NCBI GenBank assembly: GCA_002898395.1
Contig: BEHE01000003.1
Coordinates: 55,519-119,518, forward strand
Direction: 5' to 3'
DNA from: Candidatus Calditenuaceae archaeon HR02
Lineage (GTDB): Archaea; Thermoproteota; Nitrososphaeria_A; Caldarchaeales; Calditenuaceae
DNA: 64,000 bases
A program made the position numbers and the translations under genes. The notes beneath the pieces are model-generated. The model made no database searches. It worked only from the letters and a program-made list of their open reading frames with translations, and was not told the DNA's origin. This document shows, piece by piece, positions 20,353 through 28,738 of this stretch (position 1 is the stretch's first letter; every line of letters starts with the position of its first letter).

Positions 20353-22764
20353 TTAACCTACGCTACCACTCATCTCAAGCTCTATGAGCCTGTTAAACTC
20401 TATCGCATACTCCATAGGGAGCGTTTTTGTGAAACTCTCCAAGAATCCGAGCACTATCATATTTAGGGCGTCCTGCTCAGGAATTCCCCTGCTCATCAAA
20501 TAGAAGATCTGGTCCTCACCTATCTTGCCCACAGTGGCCTCGTGCGTAACTGTAGCATCGTCCTCGTGGATCTCGTTGTAGGGGTAAGTATCTGTTCTGG
20601 ACCTGTCATCGAGTATGAGTGCATCACATCTAACACTCGACTTCACACGCTTAGCTCCCTTCGCGACGTGAAGCAAGCCCCTATAAGATGTCCTGCCCCC
20701 ATCCTTGCAGACAGACTTAGAGGTTATCCGGCTGGTGGTATCCGGTGCGAGGTGGATTGCCTTGGCACCCGTGTCTTGGTGCTGGCCTCTGCCCGCAAAG
20801 GCTACCGAGAGGATTTCAGCCCGAGCCCCGCGGCCCAGTAGATAGACGCTCGGATACTTCATCGTAACCTTGCTGTTGTGGACTATCATTCCTTGTGCTA
20901 TGAAGTTGGCCGTTCCTTCAACCTCTATATCATATGTTTTCTTTTCACCCGCTGGTTCTATCTTAATAACAGGAACGAAGTATACCTCTGTATCTGGTAT
21001 TTGATCGCTGAAGTATAGGAAGTAGTGGGTATAAGTTTTCTTCCTCCTACCTAATGGCTTTTTCTCCTTTCTCTGCCATTTACTTATTTTAAGCGGGTTA
21101 AGACCACACGTGATGGCAAGCAGCTTGGTGTCCTCTAGCAATTTCTTATTAACGCTACATACGCTGAGGTTTTTATGCCCCGACCTCACATAACCATCTG
21201 CTGCTATGTAGCCTTGTATTAATGCGAGCTTCTGTGAACGAGGTAGTTTAAAGACCCATTTCGGTATCCTCTTTTCTCTAGCTTTTTTGGCTAGGCCTAG
21301 TGATGTTAAGAACATGGCTAAGTTTTTAGAATTAACTCTTAAGACGTTTCCCTGTCGCTTAGCATCTACCCCGAATATCTCACTAAGTAATGTTTTAACA
21401 CGCTTAGCCGCTGGATCATTCTCCGCAACCGCAAAGCATACACGACCCTCACCGTCTAGATATCCATCACCTAAGTAGAATCCGATTAACCACATAAGGT
21501 CGTCTGTTGTTTCAGGGGGCCATTTTATTGGCTTAGCATTTACGCTTGGTTTAAAGGTAATTTTATACGGCTTGCCTTTATCTGGAATCATGCCCACCAC
21601 GCCCACTAAATCTCCTGGCTTAATATCCCTGAGCATTCTCCAGTGTAATTTAAAGAACCTGCCTTCTTTGGACAATGTCAGGAATGGGTGGTTATCAGTT
21701 GCAACGATCTCTCTGTAATTTGCTGTGGTTAGCTTATAAACGGGGCGGGGCGGATTAGACTTCTTCCCAACAACCCTTGAAGTCCTTATCCGGAGGTCGG
21801 GCCCTACAGTATAGACTAAATCACCAACCTCCACATCCCTAATCTTCTTGACATCATTATTGGTGAAGACGGCAGTTTCAGGAACCAAGCACCCTATGTT
21901 AGCGTCAACCCACTCGACAACGGCGTCCTCATACGCGAAGGCCCTCTTTGTCACGAGGTTGTAAACATCTGTGCTCCAGTTCTGGAGAGTCGTATACCTC
22001 ACATAGGCCCCCTTCATTGCAATAATCTCCACAACAGCCGAGTGTAGGCTCTCTGAACTGTAGATGGGTGCGGTGCAACCTTCTATATAATGGACTTTGC
22101 TTCCTGGCTCGGCTATTATCAGCGTCCTCTCAAATTGGCCGACATTCGCGGCATTAATCCTGAAGTATGCTTGGAGTGGAAACTCTACATGTACACCCTC
22201 AGGTACATAGACGAAACTGCCGCCGCTCCAGACCGCCGTGTTTAGGGCCGCGAACTTGTTGTCGTTTGGTGGAACGACCGTCCCAAAATACCGTTTAACA
22301 ATAGAGGGATATTCTCGAAGCGCTGTATCCATGTCGCAGAAGATGACACCCTGCTTCTCAAGCTCTTTCCTAACATTGTGGTAAACGACCTCTGAGTCAT
22401 ACTGAGCCCCCACGCCTGCGAGGAACTTTCTCTCCGCCTCGGGAATTCCCAGCCTGTCAAACGTCCTCTTTATGTATTCGGGAACCTCCTCCCAGCTCCT
22501 AAACTTCCTGTCAGTCGGGCTGACGTAGTATCTTATCTTGCCGAAGTCTAGGCTACTAAGGTCCGCCCCCCACGTAGGCATACCCCTCTCTACGAAGTAT
22601 CTGTATGCCTTGAGTCGGAGCTGAGTCATCCACTCAGGCTCATCCTTAATCCTGGAAATCTCTTCGACAACCCTCTCCGAGATTCCGGGCTGGAAAATAT
22701 ACTTGTATTCTACCTCGTCTCTGAAATTATATTTACTGTAGTCGAAGCTTATCTCTGTTGTCAT
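20353..22764 (-). CDS. sufB: Fe-S cluster assembly protein SufB (intein-containing)
   Basis: GQFERTLII, YIEGCTAP, KVTMKYPS, HEATVGKI; 464 aa after intein removal. Confidence 0.96.
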   Translation of the reverse strand: MTTEISFDYSKYNFRDEVEYKYIFQPGISERVVEEISRIKDEPEWMTQLRLKAYRYFVERGMPTWGADLSSLDFGKIRYYVSPTDRKFRSWEEVPEYIKRTFDRLGIPEAERKFLAGVGAQYDSEVVYHNVRKELEKQGVIFCDMDTALREYPSIVKRYFGTVVPPNDNKFAALNTAVWSGGSFVYVPEGVHVEFPLQAYFRINAANVGQFERTLIIAEPGSKVHYIEGCTAPIYSSESLHSAVVEIIAMKGAYVRYTTLQNWSTDVYNLVTKRAFAYEDAVVEWVDANIGCLVPETAVFTNNDVKKIRDVEVGDLVYTVGPDLRIRTSRVVGKKSNPPRPVYKLTTANYREIVATDNHPFLTLSKEGRFFKLHWRMLRDIKPGDLVGVVGMIPDKGKPYKITFKPSVNAKPIKWPPETTDDLMWLIGFYLGDGYLDGEGRVCFAVAENDPAAKRVKTLLSEIFGVDAKRQGNVLRVNSKNLAMFLTSLGLAKKAREKRIPKWVFKLPRSQKLALIQGYIAADGYVRSGHKNLSVCSVNKKLLEDTKLLAITCGLNPLKISKWQRKEKKPLGRRKKTYTHYFLYFSDQIPDTEVYFVPVIKIEPAGEKKTYDIEVEGTANFIAQGMIVHNSKVTMKYPSVYLLGRGARAEILSVAFAGRGQHQDTGAKAIHLAPDTTSRITSKSVCKDGGRTSYRGLLHVAKGAKRVKSSVRCDALILDDRSRTDTYPYNEIHEDDATVTHEATVGKIGEDQIFYLMSRGIPEQDALNMIVLGFLESFTKTLPMEYAIEFNRLIELEMSGSVG
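20875..21891 (-). mobile_element. Intein with LAGLIDADG homing endonuclease (339 aa)
   Basis: NIG|CLVPET...ATDNHPF...MIVHN|SKV junctions; WLIGFYLGDG and LIQGYIAADG motifs; visibly more AT-rich than the exteins. Confidence 0.95.
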
Positions 22765-23451: not shown

Positions 23452-23790
23452 TTATGGGGTTTTTATTTTAAATTCTTTCCCCTCACAGTCCACGACCCCC
23501 TGCACGCGTCTGATGAATGAGACGCAGTTGTAGCACATGAGGAATGGGATGGTCTGGCTAGCCACAGGGCACTCTACATACTCCTTCTTCATCTTCGCTA
23601 TCATCTTATTGCTCAGGGATTTCCTCAGGCTCTCTATAATCTTTTGATCTACCTTGAGCGCCTTCTGAGATGTCTTAACCTCTACTCGATATTGCGGAGA
23701 CCTCAAATCCTGTTGGCGCAATTGCTGAGCCTCGTTATAAATCATCCGCCATCGGTCTAATCCCTGATACACTGTGTAAGGCTCAGCCAA
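23452..23790 (-). CDS. Hypothetical protein with four C-terminal Cys
   Basis: Clean ORF; VECPV...CYNC...VDC. Confidence 0.65.
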   Translation of the reverse strand: MAEPYTVYQGLDRWRMIYNEAQQLRQQDLRSPQYRVEVKTSQKALKVDQKIIESLRKSLSNKMIAKMKKEYVECPVASQTIPFLMCYNCVSFIRRVQGVVDCEGKEFKIKTP

Positions 23791-23870
23791 ACAGGTATGC
23801 GCGGCTCAACCGTTGATGGAGCGGTTTGGACCATGTGGATTCGTTAATGTTTATATATTGACCAATAGAC

Positions 23871-23999
23871 ATGTTCAGGCACAGGCGAAGGGTGGTAGTT
23901 ATTGCTTGGAGCCGTGAACTAGCTCCGCACATCCTACGTGTCACCGACCCTATTGAAAAATCTGCTCCGTCCCTTCGCATCCTCCTTCTTCTCTGGTGA
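23871..23999 (+). promoter_or_regulatory. Candidate leader peptide/attenuator of the leu-ilv operon (42 aa)
   Basis: MFRHRRRVVVIAWSRELAPHILRVTDPIEKSAPSLRILLLLW*; stop overlaps the GGTGA SD of leuA; alternative pairings present. Confidence 0.6.
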
Positions 24000-24008
24000 G
24001 GGTGGACT

Positions 24009-25544
24009 ATGAGCTGGAGAAGTTTCTTGGAGGGGATATATGTTCTTCCAAGTCGTGTACTCTTCTTCGATACTACGCTGAGGGATGGTGAGCAGACCCC
24101 TGGGGTCGCGCTACGCGTAGAGGAGAAGATGATGATCGCTGAGGCGCTGTCTGATTTGGGGGTTGATGTGATAGAGGCGGGGTTCGCCGTTGTCTCGAAG
24201 GGGGAGTATGAGTCTGTCAAAAGGATATGTAGCTTGGGGCTGAGCTCCAAGATCTGCTCCCTGAGCAGGTGCGAGACGAGGGATGTTGACGCTGCTGTTG
24301 ACGCGGGTTGCGACTGGGTCCACCTATTTATCGCGACCTCCGAACTCCACATGAAGTATAAGCTGAACATGACGAGGGAGCAGGTAGTTGAGAGGGCAGT
24401 TAAGATGGTTGAATATGCGAAGAGTCGGGGTGTTGTAGTCCACTTCTCGGCGGAGGATGCGACAAGAAGCGATCCCGAATTTCTGATGGAAGTTTACCGG
24501 CGCGTAAGGGACGCGGGGGCTGACAGTTTAGATATTCCTGACACGGTCGGTGTTGCTGTTCCACACGTGATGAGGTCGCTTGCTAGTAGGGCAAAGTGTG
24601 AGACCGGCCTACCTATCGCCGTCCACTGCCACGATGATATGGGGCTAGCTACGGCTAATACCTTGGCTGGCGTTGAGGGTGGGGCAGAGATAGTGCATGT
24701 TACCGTGAATGGGATTGGCGAGAGGGCTGGAAACACGAGTCTGGAGGAGGTGGCTGTCGCCCTCAAGTTCCTCTATGGCGTCGAGACTGGGATAAGATAT
24801 GAGAATATTGCGAGGGTCTCGAGGCTGGTTGCCCGGCTGACTGGAATCCCGATCCCTAAAAACAAAGCCGTCGTCGGGGAACACGCCTTCTCCCACGAGA
24901 GTGGAATCCATGTACATGGGGTGATCAATAATCCTGCCACATATGAGCCCATTATGCCTGAGCAGGTGGGGATGAGTAGGCGGATTATCATTGGCAAGCA
25001 CTCGGGAGCACACTCGGTCAACACGATTCTGAGGCAGTATGGATTCGTCTTAGAGACTGATGAGGTCAGGGCTGTTCTGGAGAGGGTTAAGAATGTTGCC
25101 GACTCAGGGCATAAAATAAGTGATCAAGAGTTGCTACAGATCGTTAACGAGGTTATAGGTTTAAAGGCCGCTAGGCCGGTGACTTTAAGGGGTTTCCAAC
25201 AGATTACGACAGAGCATGGCGATAGGTGTGTAGCTGAGTTTGAAGTTAACGGGGAGACGCTTCTCGTTGAGGGTGTTGGTGATACGCCGCTTAAGTCGGC
25301 GATAGATGCCTCGATGAGGGCGTTTACCAACATTTTAGGAGATATTAAGATTGTCGACTACTCTGTATTTGCATCACCATACGAGGATAGACACCCCTAC
25401 GAAGCCGAGGTAATTATAAGGGTTAATGGAAACACCATCGTCGGGAGGGGGATAGGCAAGACGAGTGGCCACACAATACTAAACGCCGTATCTAACGCCG
25501 TTAATCAGTATCTGCTAACCCAGTCACGGGGGGTTGGGAGATGA
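24009..25544 (+). CDS. leuA: 2-isopropylmalate/citramalate synthase (LeuA/CimA family)
   Basis: DTTLRDGEQ, HCHDD, GIGERAGN, HESGIH; C-terminal regulatory domain; LeuA versus CimA not resolved. Confidence 0.88.
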   Translation: MSWRSFLEGIYVLPSRVLFFDTTLRDGEQTPGVALRVEEKMMIAEALSDLGVDVIEAGFAVVSKGEYESVKRICSLGLSSKICSLSRCETRDVDAAVDAGCDWVHLFIATSELHMKYKLNMTREQVVERAVKMVEYAKSRGVVVHFSAEDATRSDPEFLMEVYRRVRDAGADSLDIPDTVGVAVPHVMRSLASRAKCETGLPIAVHCHDDMGLATANTLAGVEGGAEIVHVTVNGIGERAGNTSLEEVAVALKFLYGVETGIRYENIARVSRLVARLTGIPIPKNKAVVGEHAFSHESGIHVHGVINNPATYEPIMPEQVGMSRRIIIGKHSGAHSVNTILRQYGFVLETDEVRAVLERVKNVADSGHKISDQELLQIVNEVIGLKAARPVTLRGFQQITTEHGDRCVAEFEVNGETLLVEGVGDTPLKSAIDASMRAFTNILGDIKIVDYSVFASPYEDRHPYEAEVIIRVNGNTIVGRGIGKTSGHTILNAVSNAVNQYLLTQSRGVGR

Positions 25545-27274
25545 AGGCGAGCGACGCCCTAGTCAAGAAGATGGAAGAGCTGGGTGTTGAGATAGTCTTC
25601 GGTATTCCAGGGGGCGCTAACCTACCACTATACGACTCTCTACATGACTCTGAAATCAGGAGTGTGCTTGTGAAGCATGAGCAGCAAGCCGCCCATGCCG
25701 CTGAGGGGTATGCCCGGGTCAAAAAAAGGCCGGGGATAGCCCTGGCCACTTCTGGCCCAGGGGCTACAAACTTGATAACAGGAATCGTAAACGCCTCGAT
25801 GGATAGTGCGCCCCTAGTAGCCATCACAGGCCAAGTGGTAAGATCCTTCATGGGTACGGACGCCTTCCAGGAGGCAGACATAGTTGGCATGATACTCCCC
25901 CACGTAAAGTACGCCTCCGTTGTTTTCGAGTCGTCAAAGCTAGTGAAAGAATTTGTAAATGCTTATCGGTGCGCCATAAGTGGGCGACCTGGGCCAACTC
26001 TGATAGATATTCCCAGGGATGTTCAACAAGAGGATGTAGGGGATTACGAGCAGCTTGACGACGATGTCGAGGAGAGATTCATCAAACCCGCCCCACAGCC
26101 CGATGATGGCCAGTTTAGGAGGGCTGCTGAGCTGCTGGCTGATGCCCAGCGCGTTTGCATACTACTAGGTGGTGGAGCGTACTTTAGTGATGCGACAAGG
26201 GAGGCTCTAAGACTTTCTGAGCTTCTCAACGCCGCTGTGATCGCCACTACACCAGGGAAAACCGCCCTCGTCGAAGACCATCCAAATGTCCTCGGGGTGG
26301 TTGGAATGCATGGCCGCTTCGAATCAAATCTGGCCGTGATCGAGGCCGACGTCATATTATGTGTTGGTACTAGGCTCTCCGACAGGGCTATCGGCCCGCC
26401 CACAGAGTTCAGGAAGGGCAGAAAAATCATCCACATCGACATAGACGGCAGCGAGATTGGAAAGAATGTTGTCCCAGACGTAGGAATTGTCTGCGACGCC
26501 AAAGTAGCCCTCATGAAAATACTGGAAAACCTCTCAGCGCTGGATATCAAGCCTAAGGATCCGGGATGGGTCTTGGGCCTTAAGGAGATTGGGCGCAGTT
26601 TTGACGACTACATGTTTAACCAAGCTGATGGTAGTAGGCTATCGTCTTGGAAGGTTGTCAAGACTATTAGAGATGAGCTGCCGAAGAATGCTATAGTGAC
26701 TACGGGGGTGGGGCAGCATCAGATGTGGTCTCAACTCTTCTTCAAGGTTTTAGAGCCCGGAACCTTCATCACGAGCGCGGGCCTGGGTACAATGGGCTTC
26801 GGTCTTCCAGCAGCTATGGGCGCTAAGGCTGCCGCCCCAGATAAAATCGTGCTCAACATGGATGGGGACGGTAGCTTCTTAATGACTTGTCAGACCCTCG
26901 GTACCATCGTTGAATACGACCTCCCAGTAATCACGGTGATCTTTGACAACCGCTCGCTAGGCATGGTGAGGCAGTGGCAAGACCTATTCTACAAGAAGAG
27001 GTTCAAGGATGTTGACATCGAAGATAGAACAAACTTGGTCAAGCTCTCTGAGGCCTTCGGGGTTGAAGGGATATTTGTTGAGAGCTATGAAGAGTTGAGG
27101 ACCGCCCTTAGGAGGGCTATCAGAAATAATGAGGCTCTCGTCATAGACGTGCCTATAGACAAGGACGAGAAAGTGTTCCCAATGGTGCCGCCTGGAAAGT
27201 GGCTTGCGGATGTCATTCTCCCACCGGGGTTCAGCTCATATGTCGAGGAGAAGACTACTAGTCCGGCTAAGTAA
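25541..27274 (+). CDS. ilvB: Acetolactate synthase large subunit
   Basis: FGIPGGA, KHEQ, TSGPGATN, GDGS...N ThDP motif, GMVRQWQ. Confidence 0.96.
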   Translation: MKASDALVKKMEELGVEIVFGIPGGANLPLYDSLHDSEIRSVLVKHEQQAAHAAEGYARVKKRPGIALATSGPGATNLITGIVNASMDSAPLVAITGQVVRSFMGTDAFQEADIVGMILPHVKYASVVFESSKLVKEFVNAYRCAISGRPGPTLIDIPRDVQQEDVGDYEQLDDDVEERFIKPAPQPDDGQFRRAAELLADAQRVCILLGGGAYFSDATREALRLSELLNAAVIATTPGKTALVEDHPNVLGVVGMHGRFESNLAVIEADVILCVGTRLSDRAIGPPTEFRKGRKIIHIDIDGSEIGKNVVPDVGIVCDAKVALMKILENLSALDIKPKDPGWVLGLKEIGRSFDDYMFNQADGSRLSSWKVVKTIRDELPKNAIVTTGVGQHQMWSQLFFKVLEPGTFITSAGLGTMGFGLPAAMGAKAAAPDKIVLNMDGDGSFLMTCQTLGTIVEYDLPVITVIFDNRSLGMVRQWQDLFYKKRFKDVDIEDRTNLVKLSEAFGVEGIFVESYEELRTALRRAIRNNEALVIDVPIDKDEKVFPMVPPGKWLADVILPPGFSSYVEEKTTSPAK

Positions 27275-27470
27275 CTCATACGAGGCTGTCCTGAAGCTTT
27301 TACTCTTCGCGAAGCAGGGGAGGATATCGTTAAGGGAATTGCATCTAAAGTCCGATGATGACGAAATATCTGCCGAGATGGTTGTCGAGGCGCCGCCCGA
27401 GAAGGTTGACTGGTTCGTGAAAAAAGCCAGCGGCTCGCCCATAGTCATAGAGTGTAGGAGTCTCGAGTAG
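27240..27470 (+). CDS. Single ACT-like domain protein (probable AHAS regulatory subunit)
   Basis: 76 aa with ACT-like pattern, directly after ilvB. Confidence 0.6.
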   Translation: MSRRRLLVRLSNSYEAVLKLLLFAKQGRISLRELHLKSDDDEISAEMVVEAPPEKVDWFVKKASGSPIVIECRSLE

Positions 27471-27478
27471 CAAGTGGC

Positions 27479-27751
27479 ATGTCTGCGGGGCTCATAGTCA
27501 GGCTCTTGTTCAAAGGGTTAAGAAATGCGCTCACCGCAGTCCGACTTGTTAGCGAATTGGAGGGTTTAGAGGTTAGAGCTATATACATCGGACGGGAAAG
27601 TGTTGAAGAAATGTATGAGGTGGTATTAGAATTGTCAGCAAACTCTGTGGTGGTTAACGACTTCTTAAGAAACGTGTCGGCGAGCAGTGGCTTCATAGAG
27701 GCTTGCGTGGAGGACTTGGACGCCCGTGCCGTCTGGGAGGGGATTAGGTGA
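27479..27751 (+). CDS. Second ACT-like domain protein
   Basis: 90 aa between the first ACT gene and ilvC; alternating beta/alpha pattern. Confidence 0.5.
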   Translation: MSAGLIVRLLFKGLRNALTAVRLVSELEGLEVRAIYIGRESVEEMYEVVLELSANSVVVNDFLRNVSASSGFIEACVEDLDARAVWEGIR

Positions 27752-27757
27752 GGAATC

Positions 27758-28738
27758 TTGGCTAGGGTCTATTACGACTCTGATGCCTCTCTCACCCCCC
27801 TCCAGGGGAAACGGGTAGCGGTGATCGGCTATGGCAGCCAGGGTAGGGCTCAAGCCCTAAACATCAGGGACTCCGGGATAGAGACTGTTATCGGCCTGAG
27901 GGGCGAGGGTAAGTCCTATGAAGCGGCGGTCAAAGACGGCTTCACACCATTACCGATAGAAGAGGCCGTCAGGATATCTGATGTGATCTTGATGCTTATC
28001 CCCGACGTGCCCATGCCTGAGACCTATAAGATGTATATCGAAAACAGCCTGACACCTGGCAAGACGCTAGTCTTCGCCCACGGCTACAACATACATTATA
28101 AGAGAATCGTTCCACCCCCCTATGTGAACGTAGTACTCGTGGCTCCTAAGGGCCCCGGCCCACTCGTGAGGCAGAAATACCTTGAGGGGCGAGGCGTCCC
28201 CAGCCTTATAGCAGTCCACCAAAACCCAACTGGAAACGCGAAGGAGGTCGCCCTCGCGATAGCCAAGGCAATCGGCGCCACTAGGGCAGGCGTCATAGAG
28301 ACGACATTCCAAGAGGAGACTGAGACAGACCTTCTCGGAGAGCAGGCTGTTCTGGTTGGCGGGGTCATGGAGCTTATCAAGAAGGGATTTGAGGTGCTGG
28401 TCGAGAATGGATACCAGCCTGAACTCGCCTATTATGAAGTCTGCAACGAGCTGAAACTGATAGTTGACCTGATATACTCGGGGGGTCTAATGCACATGCT
28501 TCGCTCCGTCTCCGACACGGCTAAGTTCGGAGGCCTGACGATCGGCCCCCAGATAATTGACGAGTCTGTGAAACAGAAGATGCAGGAGGCGTTGAGAAGG
28601 ATAAAGTCGGGCGAGTTCGAGAAGCTTTGGACAGGAAACCCTGACGCATACAAGATCCTAGATAAGATGATGGAGAAGACGGAGCAGCACCCGCTTGAAG
28701 TTGTGGGAAAACGCCTCAGAGAAATGGCACTAATATAG
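27758..28738 (+). CDS. ilvC: Ketol-acid reductoisomerase
   Basis: IGYGSQG, FAHG, APKGPG, ETETDLLGEQ. Confidence 0.97.
   Translation: MARVYYDSDASLTPLQGKRVAVIGYGSQGRAQALNIRDSGIETVIGLRGEGKSYEAAVKDGFTPLPIEEAVRISDVILMLIPDVPMPETYKMYIENSLTPGKTLVFAHGYNIHYKRIVPPPYVNVVLVAPKGPGPLVRQKYLEGRGVPSLIAVHQNPTGNAKEVALAIAKAIGATRAGVIETTFQEETETDLLGEQAVLVGGVMELIKKGFEVLVENGYQPELAYYEVCNELKLIVDLIYSGGLMHMLRSVSDTAKFGGLTIGPQIIDESVKQKMQEALRRIKSGEFEKLWTGNPDAYKILDKMMEKTEQHPLEVVGKRLREMALI

Follow-up and report, generated by a model that had tools for sequence, protein, structure and literature searches.

The window analyzed here, a stretch of 64,000 nucleotides (nt) from Candidatus Calditenuaceae archaeon HR02, a hot-spring aigarchaeon (contig BEHE01000003.1, positions 55,519 to 119,518), carries on its forward strand a leuA-ilvB-ilvC operon, and we propose that the messenger RNA (mRNA) leader preceding leuA is a sensor of branched-chain amino acid supply, in which a ribosome stalled on a short upstream open reading frame (uORF) would unmask the leuA ribosome-binding site (RBS). 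To this reading, the mechanism of which is inferred, we assign a probability of about 0.62. Its parts are unequally firm: that the leader holds a conserved and translated uORF is very probable, that branched-chain amino acids are sensed through stalling is likely, and RBS unmasking as the output is a tentative assignment, with the odds tilted slightly against it. The direct observations are a conserved open frame, a run of branched-chain codons, a stop codon fused to the Shine-Dalgarno (SD) sequence of leuA and a fixed spacing from the promoter.

Pfam matches place LeuA at 24009-25544, IlvB at 25541-27274 and IlvC at 27758-28738 on the plus strand of the window, bearing out the identity that an earlier inspection of the letters (hereafter the sequence-only reading) had given to the genes of this operon (24009-28738). 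As the nearest upstream open reading frame (ORF) lies on the opposite strand, the region ahead of leuA appears to be the operon's 5' leader. The sequence-only reading had described here a 42-codon ORF (23871-23999, translated as MFRHRRRVVVIAWSRELAPHILRVTDPIEKSAPSLRILLLLW) with 15 isoleucine, leucine or valine (I/L/V) residues, and we recovered it as described: it is in frame with the leuA ATG 138 nt further on, and its TGA (23997-23999) is embedded in the leuA SD GGTGAGGGTGG (23995-24005), within an initiation region that extends from 23995 to the ATG at 24009-24011. Six of its last eight codons specify I/L/V against a background of 25.7% (binomial P about 0.005, by a hand estimate). Evidence of this kind, drawn from the single sequence of the window, is only suggestive of anything beyond chance, and it is the comparison of reading frames among relatives that we regard as decisive.

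For this comparison 76 species genomes of the order (Aigarchaeota/Caldarchaeales) were considered, 69 of them with a leuA match at E <= 1e-100; the sequence upstream of leuA was read at 64 loci from 63 genomes, the six others all belonging to genus g15, and near-identical leuA loci in public records, being duplicates of sampled genomes, were left uncounted. An octamer of the form T-ATT-GCT-Y (T-ATT-GCT-T at 23900-23907 of the window) is invariant in 47 of the 64 loci, spread over 11 genera: eight loci in g1, the genus of the window, six in g2, one in g3, three in g4, 13 in g7, two each in g9 and g10, one each in g11 and g12, three in g13 and seven in g14. In every lineage it is preceded, 5-8 nt upstream, by an SD-like GGTGR. 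The frame set by ATT GCT stays open to the leuA RBS at all 47 octamer loci, as against none for the +1 frame and eight for the +2 frame, and the distance from ATT to the stop takes 12 values between 72 and 141 nt, every one of them a multiple of three. The corresponding conserved core in the window runs from 23901 to 23999 and comprises 32 codons plus TGA (IAWSRELAPHILRVTDPIEKSAPSLRILLLLW). Across orthologous leaders, the ORF and the branched-chain codon run at its 3' end are kept in 11 genera and in three of the four families of the order. The sequence-only reading thereby passes a check that it had set itself, namely that orthologous leaders retain such an ORF and such runs.

The position of the stop is likewise constrained. 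Outside g7 it lies 8-19 nt before the leuA ATG at 34 of 34 loci, in 30 of these at -12 to -14, and the fusion with the SD takes the forms UGAGGUG, UAGGUG and UAAGGUG; at all 13 loci of g7 the leader ORF instead continues past the leuA ATG to a stop at +11 or +19. Read-through of the stop to give LeuA an N-terminal extension was considered and set aside, as leader and leuA are in frame only where the stop lies at -12 (13/34 loci), an arrangement that is not conserved. Likewise, a 195-aa ORF on the minus strand (23783-24370) spans both the leader and the leuA start, and in three loci of the same genus (L001-L003) one minus-strand frame is free of stops over the leader, so that the open frame might be taken for a by-product of an antisense gene, or the whole pattern for chance. 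Yet all three minus-strand frames contain stops across the leader at 25 of the 47 loci, among them four of the eight g1 loci (L004, L005, L007 and L008), while the plus-strand frame is open at all 47; the stops exclude an antisense gene, the ORF is unconserved in relatives and probably spurious, and we hold an explanation of this type to be extremely improbable.

Loci that depart from this pattern fall in three genera. The seven loci of g6 are without the octamer and differ in the 5' part of the leader, and the ORF there still ends in ALLLL or a similar run at UGAGGUG. The three loci of g5 and the seven of g15 are without a leader, and leuA directly follows another gene or a promoter. Wherever the leader occurs, the N-terminus of LeuA has the form M-(A/S/I/V)-W-(R/K), a stretch that is missing from the LeuA proteins of g5 and g15. 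The start of the leader (SD, about 6 nt, AUU GCU UGG) also resembles the start of leuA (SD, about 6 nt, AUG GCN UGG), a likeness that suggests either a duplicated initiation region or a constraint on the first leuA codons at the RNA level. We further observed that a GACGYC(G) motif recurs in mid-leader (23940-23950 of the window) in g1, g2, g6 and g7; its reading frame differs by genus, which points to a constraint at the nucleotide level. In the genome of the window the pattern GGTGG-N(3-8)-ATTGCT has three matches, namely the leuA leader, a site within the first part of a gene for an ABC-ATPase, and a third on contig C26.

The second line of evidence is the composition of the tail. Over the last eight codons of the leader ORF the mean I/L/V share per genus is 0.64 in g1, 0.42 in g2, 0.62 in g3, 1.0 in g4, 0.59 in g6, 0.88 in g10, 1.0 in g12, 0.58 in g13 and 0.75 in g14, compared with 0.14-0.37 for the rest of the leader ORF and 0.257 for the long ORFs of the genome. 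Typical tails, each ending at the stop codon, are LRILLLLW, PLLLL, SSLLLLN, LIIVVLLLLVVL, LLLKLIIL, VLLIIIIL, TMLLLLL and VLLLVLLL. In the window the run reads ATC CTC CTT CTT CTC (I L L L L, 23979-23993), every Leu codon being CUY, and CUU and CUC together dominate the Leu codons of the tails at large (68 and 62 of 162); a tRNA-Leu(GAG) gene is present in the window's genome, where CUY makes up 45% of the Leu codons in long ORFs. A need for a pyrimidine tract would by itself be insufficient to explain the tails, since AUU, AUC, GUA and GUU codons occur in those of g4, g10, g12 and g14, and LIIVVLLLLVVL, VLLIIIIL and LLLKLIIL use AUU and GUA, which are useless as an anti-SD; judged from these codon choices, selection on the tails acts on amino acids. 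The sequence-only reading had counted two branched-chain runs, of which the C-terminal one is conserved and the N-terminal VVVI, which overlaps the conserved SD-like and start motifs, is not. A crude genome-wide scan for uORFs that end in single-amino-acid runs beside an SD recovered the leuA leader together with other matches that look like noise, and the short upstream regions of ilvD and leuC in the same genome hold no uORF or leader.

These same features bear on a simpler possibility, that the uORF is a constitutive translational coupler which feeds leuA through termination and reinitiation, its tail being incidental or serving another purpose and nothing being sensed. A stop fused to the leuA SD, as in all 34 loci outside g7, and an ORF that overlaps the leuA start, as in all 13 g7 loci, are typical coupling geometries, and g7, g9 and g11 retain the ORF despite a weak branched-chain run; in addition, leader genes located 10-11 bp upstream have been hypothesized to raise expression through re-initiation (PMC4833913). 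A coupler would nonetheless leave unexplained why tails rich in I/L/V, encoded by differing codons, precede in nine genera the very operon that makes these amino acids, why ilvD and leuC of the same genome go without such a leader, and why independent Leu/Val-rich uORFs stand before ilvB in other families (see below). We therefore consider pure coupling distinctly improbable.

With respect to where translation of the leader begins, a TATA-like 8-mer (at least 7/8 positions matching) lies 43-51 nt upstream of ATT in 37 of the 47 octamer loci; in the window it is the box TTTATATA at 23850-23857, already pointed out in the sequence-only reading and read here as the TATA box of the leader and leuA promoter. 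Given the usual archaeal spacing between TATA box and start site, transcription is predicted to begin 13-21 nt before ATT, which in the window corresponds to about 23880 (+/-3), so that no more than about 20 nt would precede the leader ORF in the mRNA. The ATG at 23871, with which the sequence-only reading had begun the ORF, lies about 9 nt upstream of that point, and it also varies within the genus, being TTG in L004, absent from L005 and in another frame than ATT GCT in L006 and L007; a start there has to be abandoned, and the first ten codons counted from it fall outside the conserved unit. The alternative GTG at 23892 that had been offered along with it, within the 5' module described below, exists in some lineages only: downstream of the predicted transcription start an in-frame canonical start codon occurs in 16 of the 47 loci, always a GTG inside the SD-like motif, and none occurs in the other 31. 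Moreover, in-frame stops are found 9-21 nt upstream of ATT in 10 of the 47 loci, and in L009 nothing but AAG-ATT-ATT stands ahead of GCT. The scarcity of canonical starts and these upstream stops leave AUU as the sole near-cognate start candidate shared by all loci. The leader is thus more likely to start at AUU 23901, with U at -1 and GCU as second codon, or, in this genus, possibly at GTG 23892.

In light of these features we posit the following mechanism. The leader of the leuA-ilvB-ilvC mRNA would be translated as a uORF of about 32 codons from AUU 23901, or of 35 codons from GUG 23892, and would read mainly the supply of Leu-tRNA(GAG). Initiation would take place at a weak start codon behind an SD-like sequence of its own, about 20 nt from the mRNA 5' end; in the window this sequence (AGGGTGG, 23889-23895) belongs to a purine-rich 5' module (23885-23895), which also holds the 5' strand, GCGAAGGG (23885-23892), of a long-range pairing that we call P1. 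The uORF would then cross a poorly conserved spacer before reaching the Leu/Ile/Val run and the stop embedded in the leuA SD. When leucine is scarce, the ribosome would stall on the first hungry codons and cover the pyrimidine-rich tail, that is, the anti-SD-like P1 3' strand CCCTTCGC (23971-23978), situated just 5' of the Leu run, together with the CUY run itself. In g1 the free tail may otherwise form helices with the beginning of the leuA coding sequence (CUUCUCUGG with CUGGAGAAG, and CCCUUC with GGAGGGG, an alternative partner of the P1 3' strand at 24029-24035), enclosing the SD and AUG. With the ribosome stalled, the leuA RBS, about one ribosome width further on, would thus stay unpaired, and leuA would be translated. 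With plentiful leucine, the ribosome would terminate and leave, the tail would re-pair with the leuA start, and P1 (GCGAAGGG with CCCUUCGC) would shut the SD of the leader itself. Translation of the ORF, its AUU start, stalling, the RNA switch and the direction of regulation are all points that we infer, and the sign of the regulation in particular from biological logic only.

Some elements of this scheme are visible in predicted structures. The perfect complementarity between GCGAAGGG and CCCTTCGC that the sequence-only reading had pointed out is indeed present, as are the two copies of AGGGTGG (23889 and 23999) and the TCACC and ACCCT segments inside 23941-23951. P1 appears in both the minimum-free-energy (MFE) and the centroid fold of the window's leader, as does a local hairpin just past the start (GGAGC-N9-GCTCC, 23908-23926), variants of which occur in g1. 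In the MFE fold there is, in addition, a helix between the Leu run CUUCUCUGG and leuA codons 2-5 CUGGAGAAG, and this predicted g1 sequestor hairpin (23988-24022, formed by CTTCTCTGG at 23988-23996 and CTGGAGAAG at 24014-24022) encloses the SD and the ATG. Pairing of the P1 type, between the 5' SD-like strand and a segment 5' of the codon run, beats shuffled sequences (z < -1.64) in 13 of the 47 octamer loci, with genus means of -3.4 in g13, -3.2 in g11, -2.2 in g4, -1.8 in g10, -1.35 in g1 and -1.2 in g2. The duplex between tail and leuA head reaches -21 to -25 kcal/mol in L001-L003 (z -1.7 to -3.1) and is moderate in L006 (z -1.8) and in parts of g13. In the unconstrained ensemble, the final 36 nt of the leader account for 50-56% of the pairing probability of the leuA RBS.

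Several points weigh against the proposed stalling sensor and its switch. To our knowledge AUU is not an established start codon in archaea, and a canonical UUG at 23902, overlapping it in the +1 frame, should outcompete it. The I/L/V share of the tail is weak in g7, g9 and g11 (0.31-0.38), where the ORF is nonetheless kept. A ribosome halted on the last Leu codons or on the stop would itself cover the leuA SD, so that regulation of the opposite sign or plain coupling is possible. The whole leader of the window folds no better than shuffled sequences (z = +0.34), P1 is no better than shuffles in g3, g7, g9, g12 and g14, and the hairpin between tail and leuA head is absent from g4 and near chance in most genera (mean z -0.59). 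When a stalled ribosome is modeled as a mask, the accessibility of the RBS stays at 0.42 at 37 C and rises only from 0.55 to 0.59 at 70 C; with the initiation site masked instead, the values are slightly lower, 0.38 and 0.51, respectively. Lastly, in the actinobacterial LEU element, to which we return below, mutation of the Leu codons was reportedly without effect on regulation (PMC1262725). The single-sequence MFE folds of 14 leaders are also mutually inconsistent, and support for the SD switch envisaged in the sequence-only reading is lineage-specific or weak when orthologous leaders are folded. Taken together, the structure predictions are compatible with a switch and do not establish one.

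Neither an oligo-T tract nor a terminator-like site was found on the plus strand between 23400 and 24400, and the leader stop, inside the leuA SD and 9 nt from the ATG, leaves no room for a terminator. Consequently the leader is not a classical transcription attenuator; the comparative data do support the leader-peptide interpretation that the sequence-only reading had put forward. The same stalling sensor could still act on the transcript, either by blocking termination by FttA/aCPSF1 on C/U-rich RNA or by shielding the mRNA from 5'-to-3' exonucleases; in bacteria, comparably, the TnaC ribosome blocks Rho and stalled ribosomes stabilize the ermC mRNA. The evidence from the ORF and the codon run applies equally to such an output, which would be independent of structure and, given the weak and lineage-specific evidence for an RNA switch, would better fit genera such as g4 and g14; the proximity of the ORF to the predicted 5' end also favors it. 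The missing oligo-T or terminator-like site speaks against it, as does the strict fusion of stop and SD (30/34 at -12 to -14), which points to translation initiation as the target, and we rate a transcript-level output as rather unlikely.

One could also regard the 5' module (GGTGR-N-TATTGCTY) and the other motifs as a structured RNA or a DNA operator recognized by a protein, a tRNA or a small ligand, with the frame being secondary. Nucleotide for nucleotide the octamer does not vary among the 47 loci, a degree of conservation beyond the needs of a start context; the mid-leader GACGYC recurs in varying reading frames; P1 shows half-compensatory changes, as between L131 and L132; and the 5' module resembles the leuA start. 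On the other hand, cmscan against Rfam gave no family, T-box and other cis-regulatory families included, for 23700-24150 of the window at E up to 10, and in an alignment of 54 leaders conservation is confined to the 5' module, the leuA RBS and the first leuA codons, the middle varying in sequence and length, such that no conserved core connects the two ends. An aptamer-like core, as would be expected of a riboswitch, is thus absent from the alignment. Nor would an RNA element or operator predict an open frame in 47 of 47 loci, length changes that are exclusively in frame and a branched-chain tail, and we view it as very improbable.

The overlap of AUU with UUG in the octamer allows a further, more speculative proposal. 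In the window the +1 frame opens a mini-ORF of six codons (TTG CTT GGA GCC GTG AAC TAG, 23902-23922); across the octamer loci the second codon of this frame is always Leu (CUY) and a stop follows after 5-10 codons at all 47, whereas the +2 frame closes within 10 codons at only 20 of them. Our reading of the g6 sequences showed an analogous GUG mini-ORF of five codons. It is conceivable, though a long shot, that the invariant A-U-U-G is a dual-frame start, through which the leader would sense leucine in two stages. On this view the initiator tRNA would sit either on UUG, with CUY as the next codon, or on the overlapping AUU, with GCU (Ala) next. Were Leu-tRNA plentiful, the CUY in the A site would be filled at once and the ribosome committed to the abortive mini-ORF; were it scarce, the initiator might re-pair one base back, Ala-tRNA would be accepted and the long ORF translated, and this translation would open the leader and then stall on the terminal Leu run by the leuA RBS.

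We also surveyed leaders elsewhere in the phylum, in a sample of 161 Thermoproteota genomes of which 135 have ilvB, reading 56 regions upstream of ilvB outside the order. In 16 of 18 genomes of family f5 (L149-L151 and L185-L199, L188 and L198 being those without it) an ATG-started uORF of 14-21 codons with a Leu/Val-rich end reaches its stop 50-84 nt ahead of the ilvB match; these uORFs include MTYILTQPFLVLVELVL, MSIKSTKIIGNVLLVVLL and MITPVAASSILLLEVLY, with ends such as FLVLVELVL, NVLLVVLL and SILLLEVLY. Archaeal amoA was detected in all three f5 genomes tested, with PF12942, as PF02461 gave no match even in controls, and on this basis f5 corresponds to ammonia oxidizers. In L149, L151, L192, L195 and L196 of this family the last uORF codons form a hairpin GCUGUA-N-UACAGC, mostly followed by a short U-run (U4-5 in some f5 loci). 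A second TATA-like TTAAAATT between the f5 uORF and ilvB makes their co-transcription uncertain. In f20 (L172 and L173) the uORF ends in SLVIVVILK or SVNVVILK and is followed by a strong hairpin, GCGCCUUAAG with CUUAAGGCGC, and a U-rich stretch, which in sequence looks like a terminator. In f19 (L171 and L203) the uORFs end in LYIMLVFRLVVVLKR and GLVCIILNR with the UGA within a few bases of the ilvB start region, and in one f19 genome the uORF ends in MLVFRLVVVLKR with the UGA directly before it. That independent architectures of the same logic occur in other families raises our confidence that the codon runs are functional.

Several further families carry a different small, conserved element upstream of ilvB. 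A small hairpin with a mini-ORF, (A/G)UGAGGGAU..ACCCUCCAAGU, encoding for example MRDGTLQV or MMGGYTLQVE, was noticed in f13, f17, f19, f21, f27, f32 and f33, and in f24 the element reads AUGAGGUGYUUUAUUCUUUACGUA (MRCFILYV); the loci with such elements are L163, L164, L166, L167, L170, L171, L174, L178, L182, L183 and L200-L204, and also L176 and L177. Among 17 ilvB leaders of other families, Rfam gave no match at E up to 0.1. At five leuA loci of Bathyarchaeia (L054, L056, L057, L059 and L061) no clear conserved leader pattern was seen upstream; open frames with short I/L-rich stretches, such as DRILLILQ and GAILILH, were observed there.

Ribosome-stalling leader peptides are a bacterial means of tying amino acid synthesis to the supply of charged tRNA, and the leaders leuL, ilvL and ivbL of enterobacteria exemplify classical ribosome-mediated transcription attenuation. 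Like these, the archaeal leader is a short uORF before the first biosynthetic gene with codons for the end products of its own operon, Leu dominating before leuA and mixed Ile/Val/Leu runs occurring in some lineages. It differs from them in having no terminator hairpin or U-run, in carrying the codon run at the very end of the ORF, in its likely AUU start, and in residing in an archaeon with a different RNA polymerase and different termination rules. Closer to our working model is the translational attenuation of erm, cat and cmlA, in which a drug and the nascent peptide stall the ribosome in a leader ORF, melting the helix that holds the downstream RBS. There too a stalled ribosome frees a downstream RBS, as we favor for the leuA leader; in the latter, however, hungry codons would cause the stall, and the helix is supported in some genera only, as opposed to the well-defined helices of the former. 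A precedent for the start codon is the bacterial infC, which is autoregulated by IF3 and has a conserved, regulatory AUU start with U at -1; the archaeal leader likewise has a conserved AUU with U at -1, at which initiation is conjectured, although nothing ties it to an initiation factor.

The actinobacterial LEU element (PMC1262725) precedes the same gene, leuA, and likewise combines a uORF bearing a Leu-codon run with the lack of an obvious terminator. For that element, too, pairing has been proposed between the pyrimidine-rich Leu codons and purine-rich stretches around the leuA start, and its leader is closed by a long-range base stem; both features resemble the archaeal arrangement. In the LEU element the Leu run is described as pairing directly with the leuA SD and enclosing a pseudoknot (PMC1262725), and its authors favored a protein-binding role on the ground that mutated Leu codons made no difference. 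In contrast, the archaeal Leu run is contiguous with the SD, separated from it by TGG and the stop only, its predicted partners are leuA codons 2-5 (in g1 only), and the P1 base stem uses the SD-like region of the leader itself. No sequence relationship to the LEU element is detectable, in that the archaeal leader has no Rfam match, the presence of the LEU element in Rfam being unchecked. The Corynebacterium ilvB-II uORF and other bacterial ilvB motifs also share with the archaeal leader a conserved uORF and branched-chain codons before ilvB-type operons, and were first recognized as a conserved RNA motif (PMC10272879); they differ from it by canonical starts and by their interpretation as transcription attenuation. 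For archaea, neither attenuation nor antitermination is known according to PMC8448881, and the literature that we searched yielded no archaeal leader-peptide sensor and nothing on AUU starts in archaea.

Turning to the surroundings of the leader, the operon contains between ilvB and ilvC two ORFs of about 90 aa (27204-27470 and 27479-27751), for which a Pfam search gave no significant match even at E up to 1. They lie in different frames at the place where the gene for the small regulatory subunit, ilvN, is expected, and may represent a divergent or frameshifted ilvN; the assembly that they come from consists of 36 contigs with an estimated completeness of 93.65%. Further upstream, on the minus strand (20353-22764), lies the gene for an 803-aa Fe-S assembly protein of the SufB/SufD type, which according to Pfam is split by an intein with a LAGLIDADG endonuclease domain.

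In conclusion, the leuA leader probably represents a type of control that is known from bacteria and as yet undescribed in archaea, and as a candidate with good phylogenetic support it comprises 47 loci in 11 genera of Aigarchaeota/Caldarchaeales, with analogous uORFs in other Thermoproteota. It raises the questions of whether AUU serves as a start codon in archaea and what role the overlapping UUG mini-ORF plays. Because such uORFs lack a canonical start they are missed by annotation pipelines, which, if the leader is confirmed, should search for them. If the dual-frame start were true as well, it would imply, together with the uORFs ahead of ilvB in Thermoproteota, that ribosome-mediated sensing of amino acids is old and widespread in archaea and has a start-selection logic of its own. 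More generally, the leader makes it testable whether translation controls archaeal gene expression co-transcriptionally.

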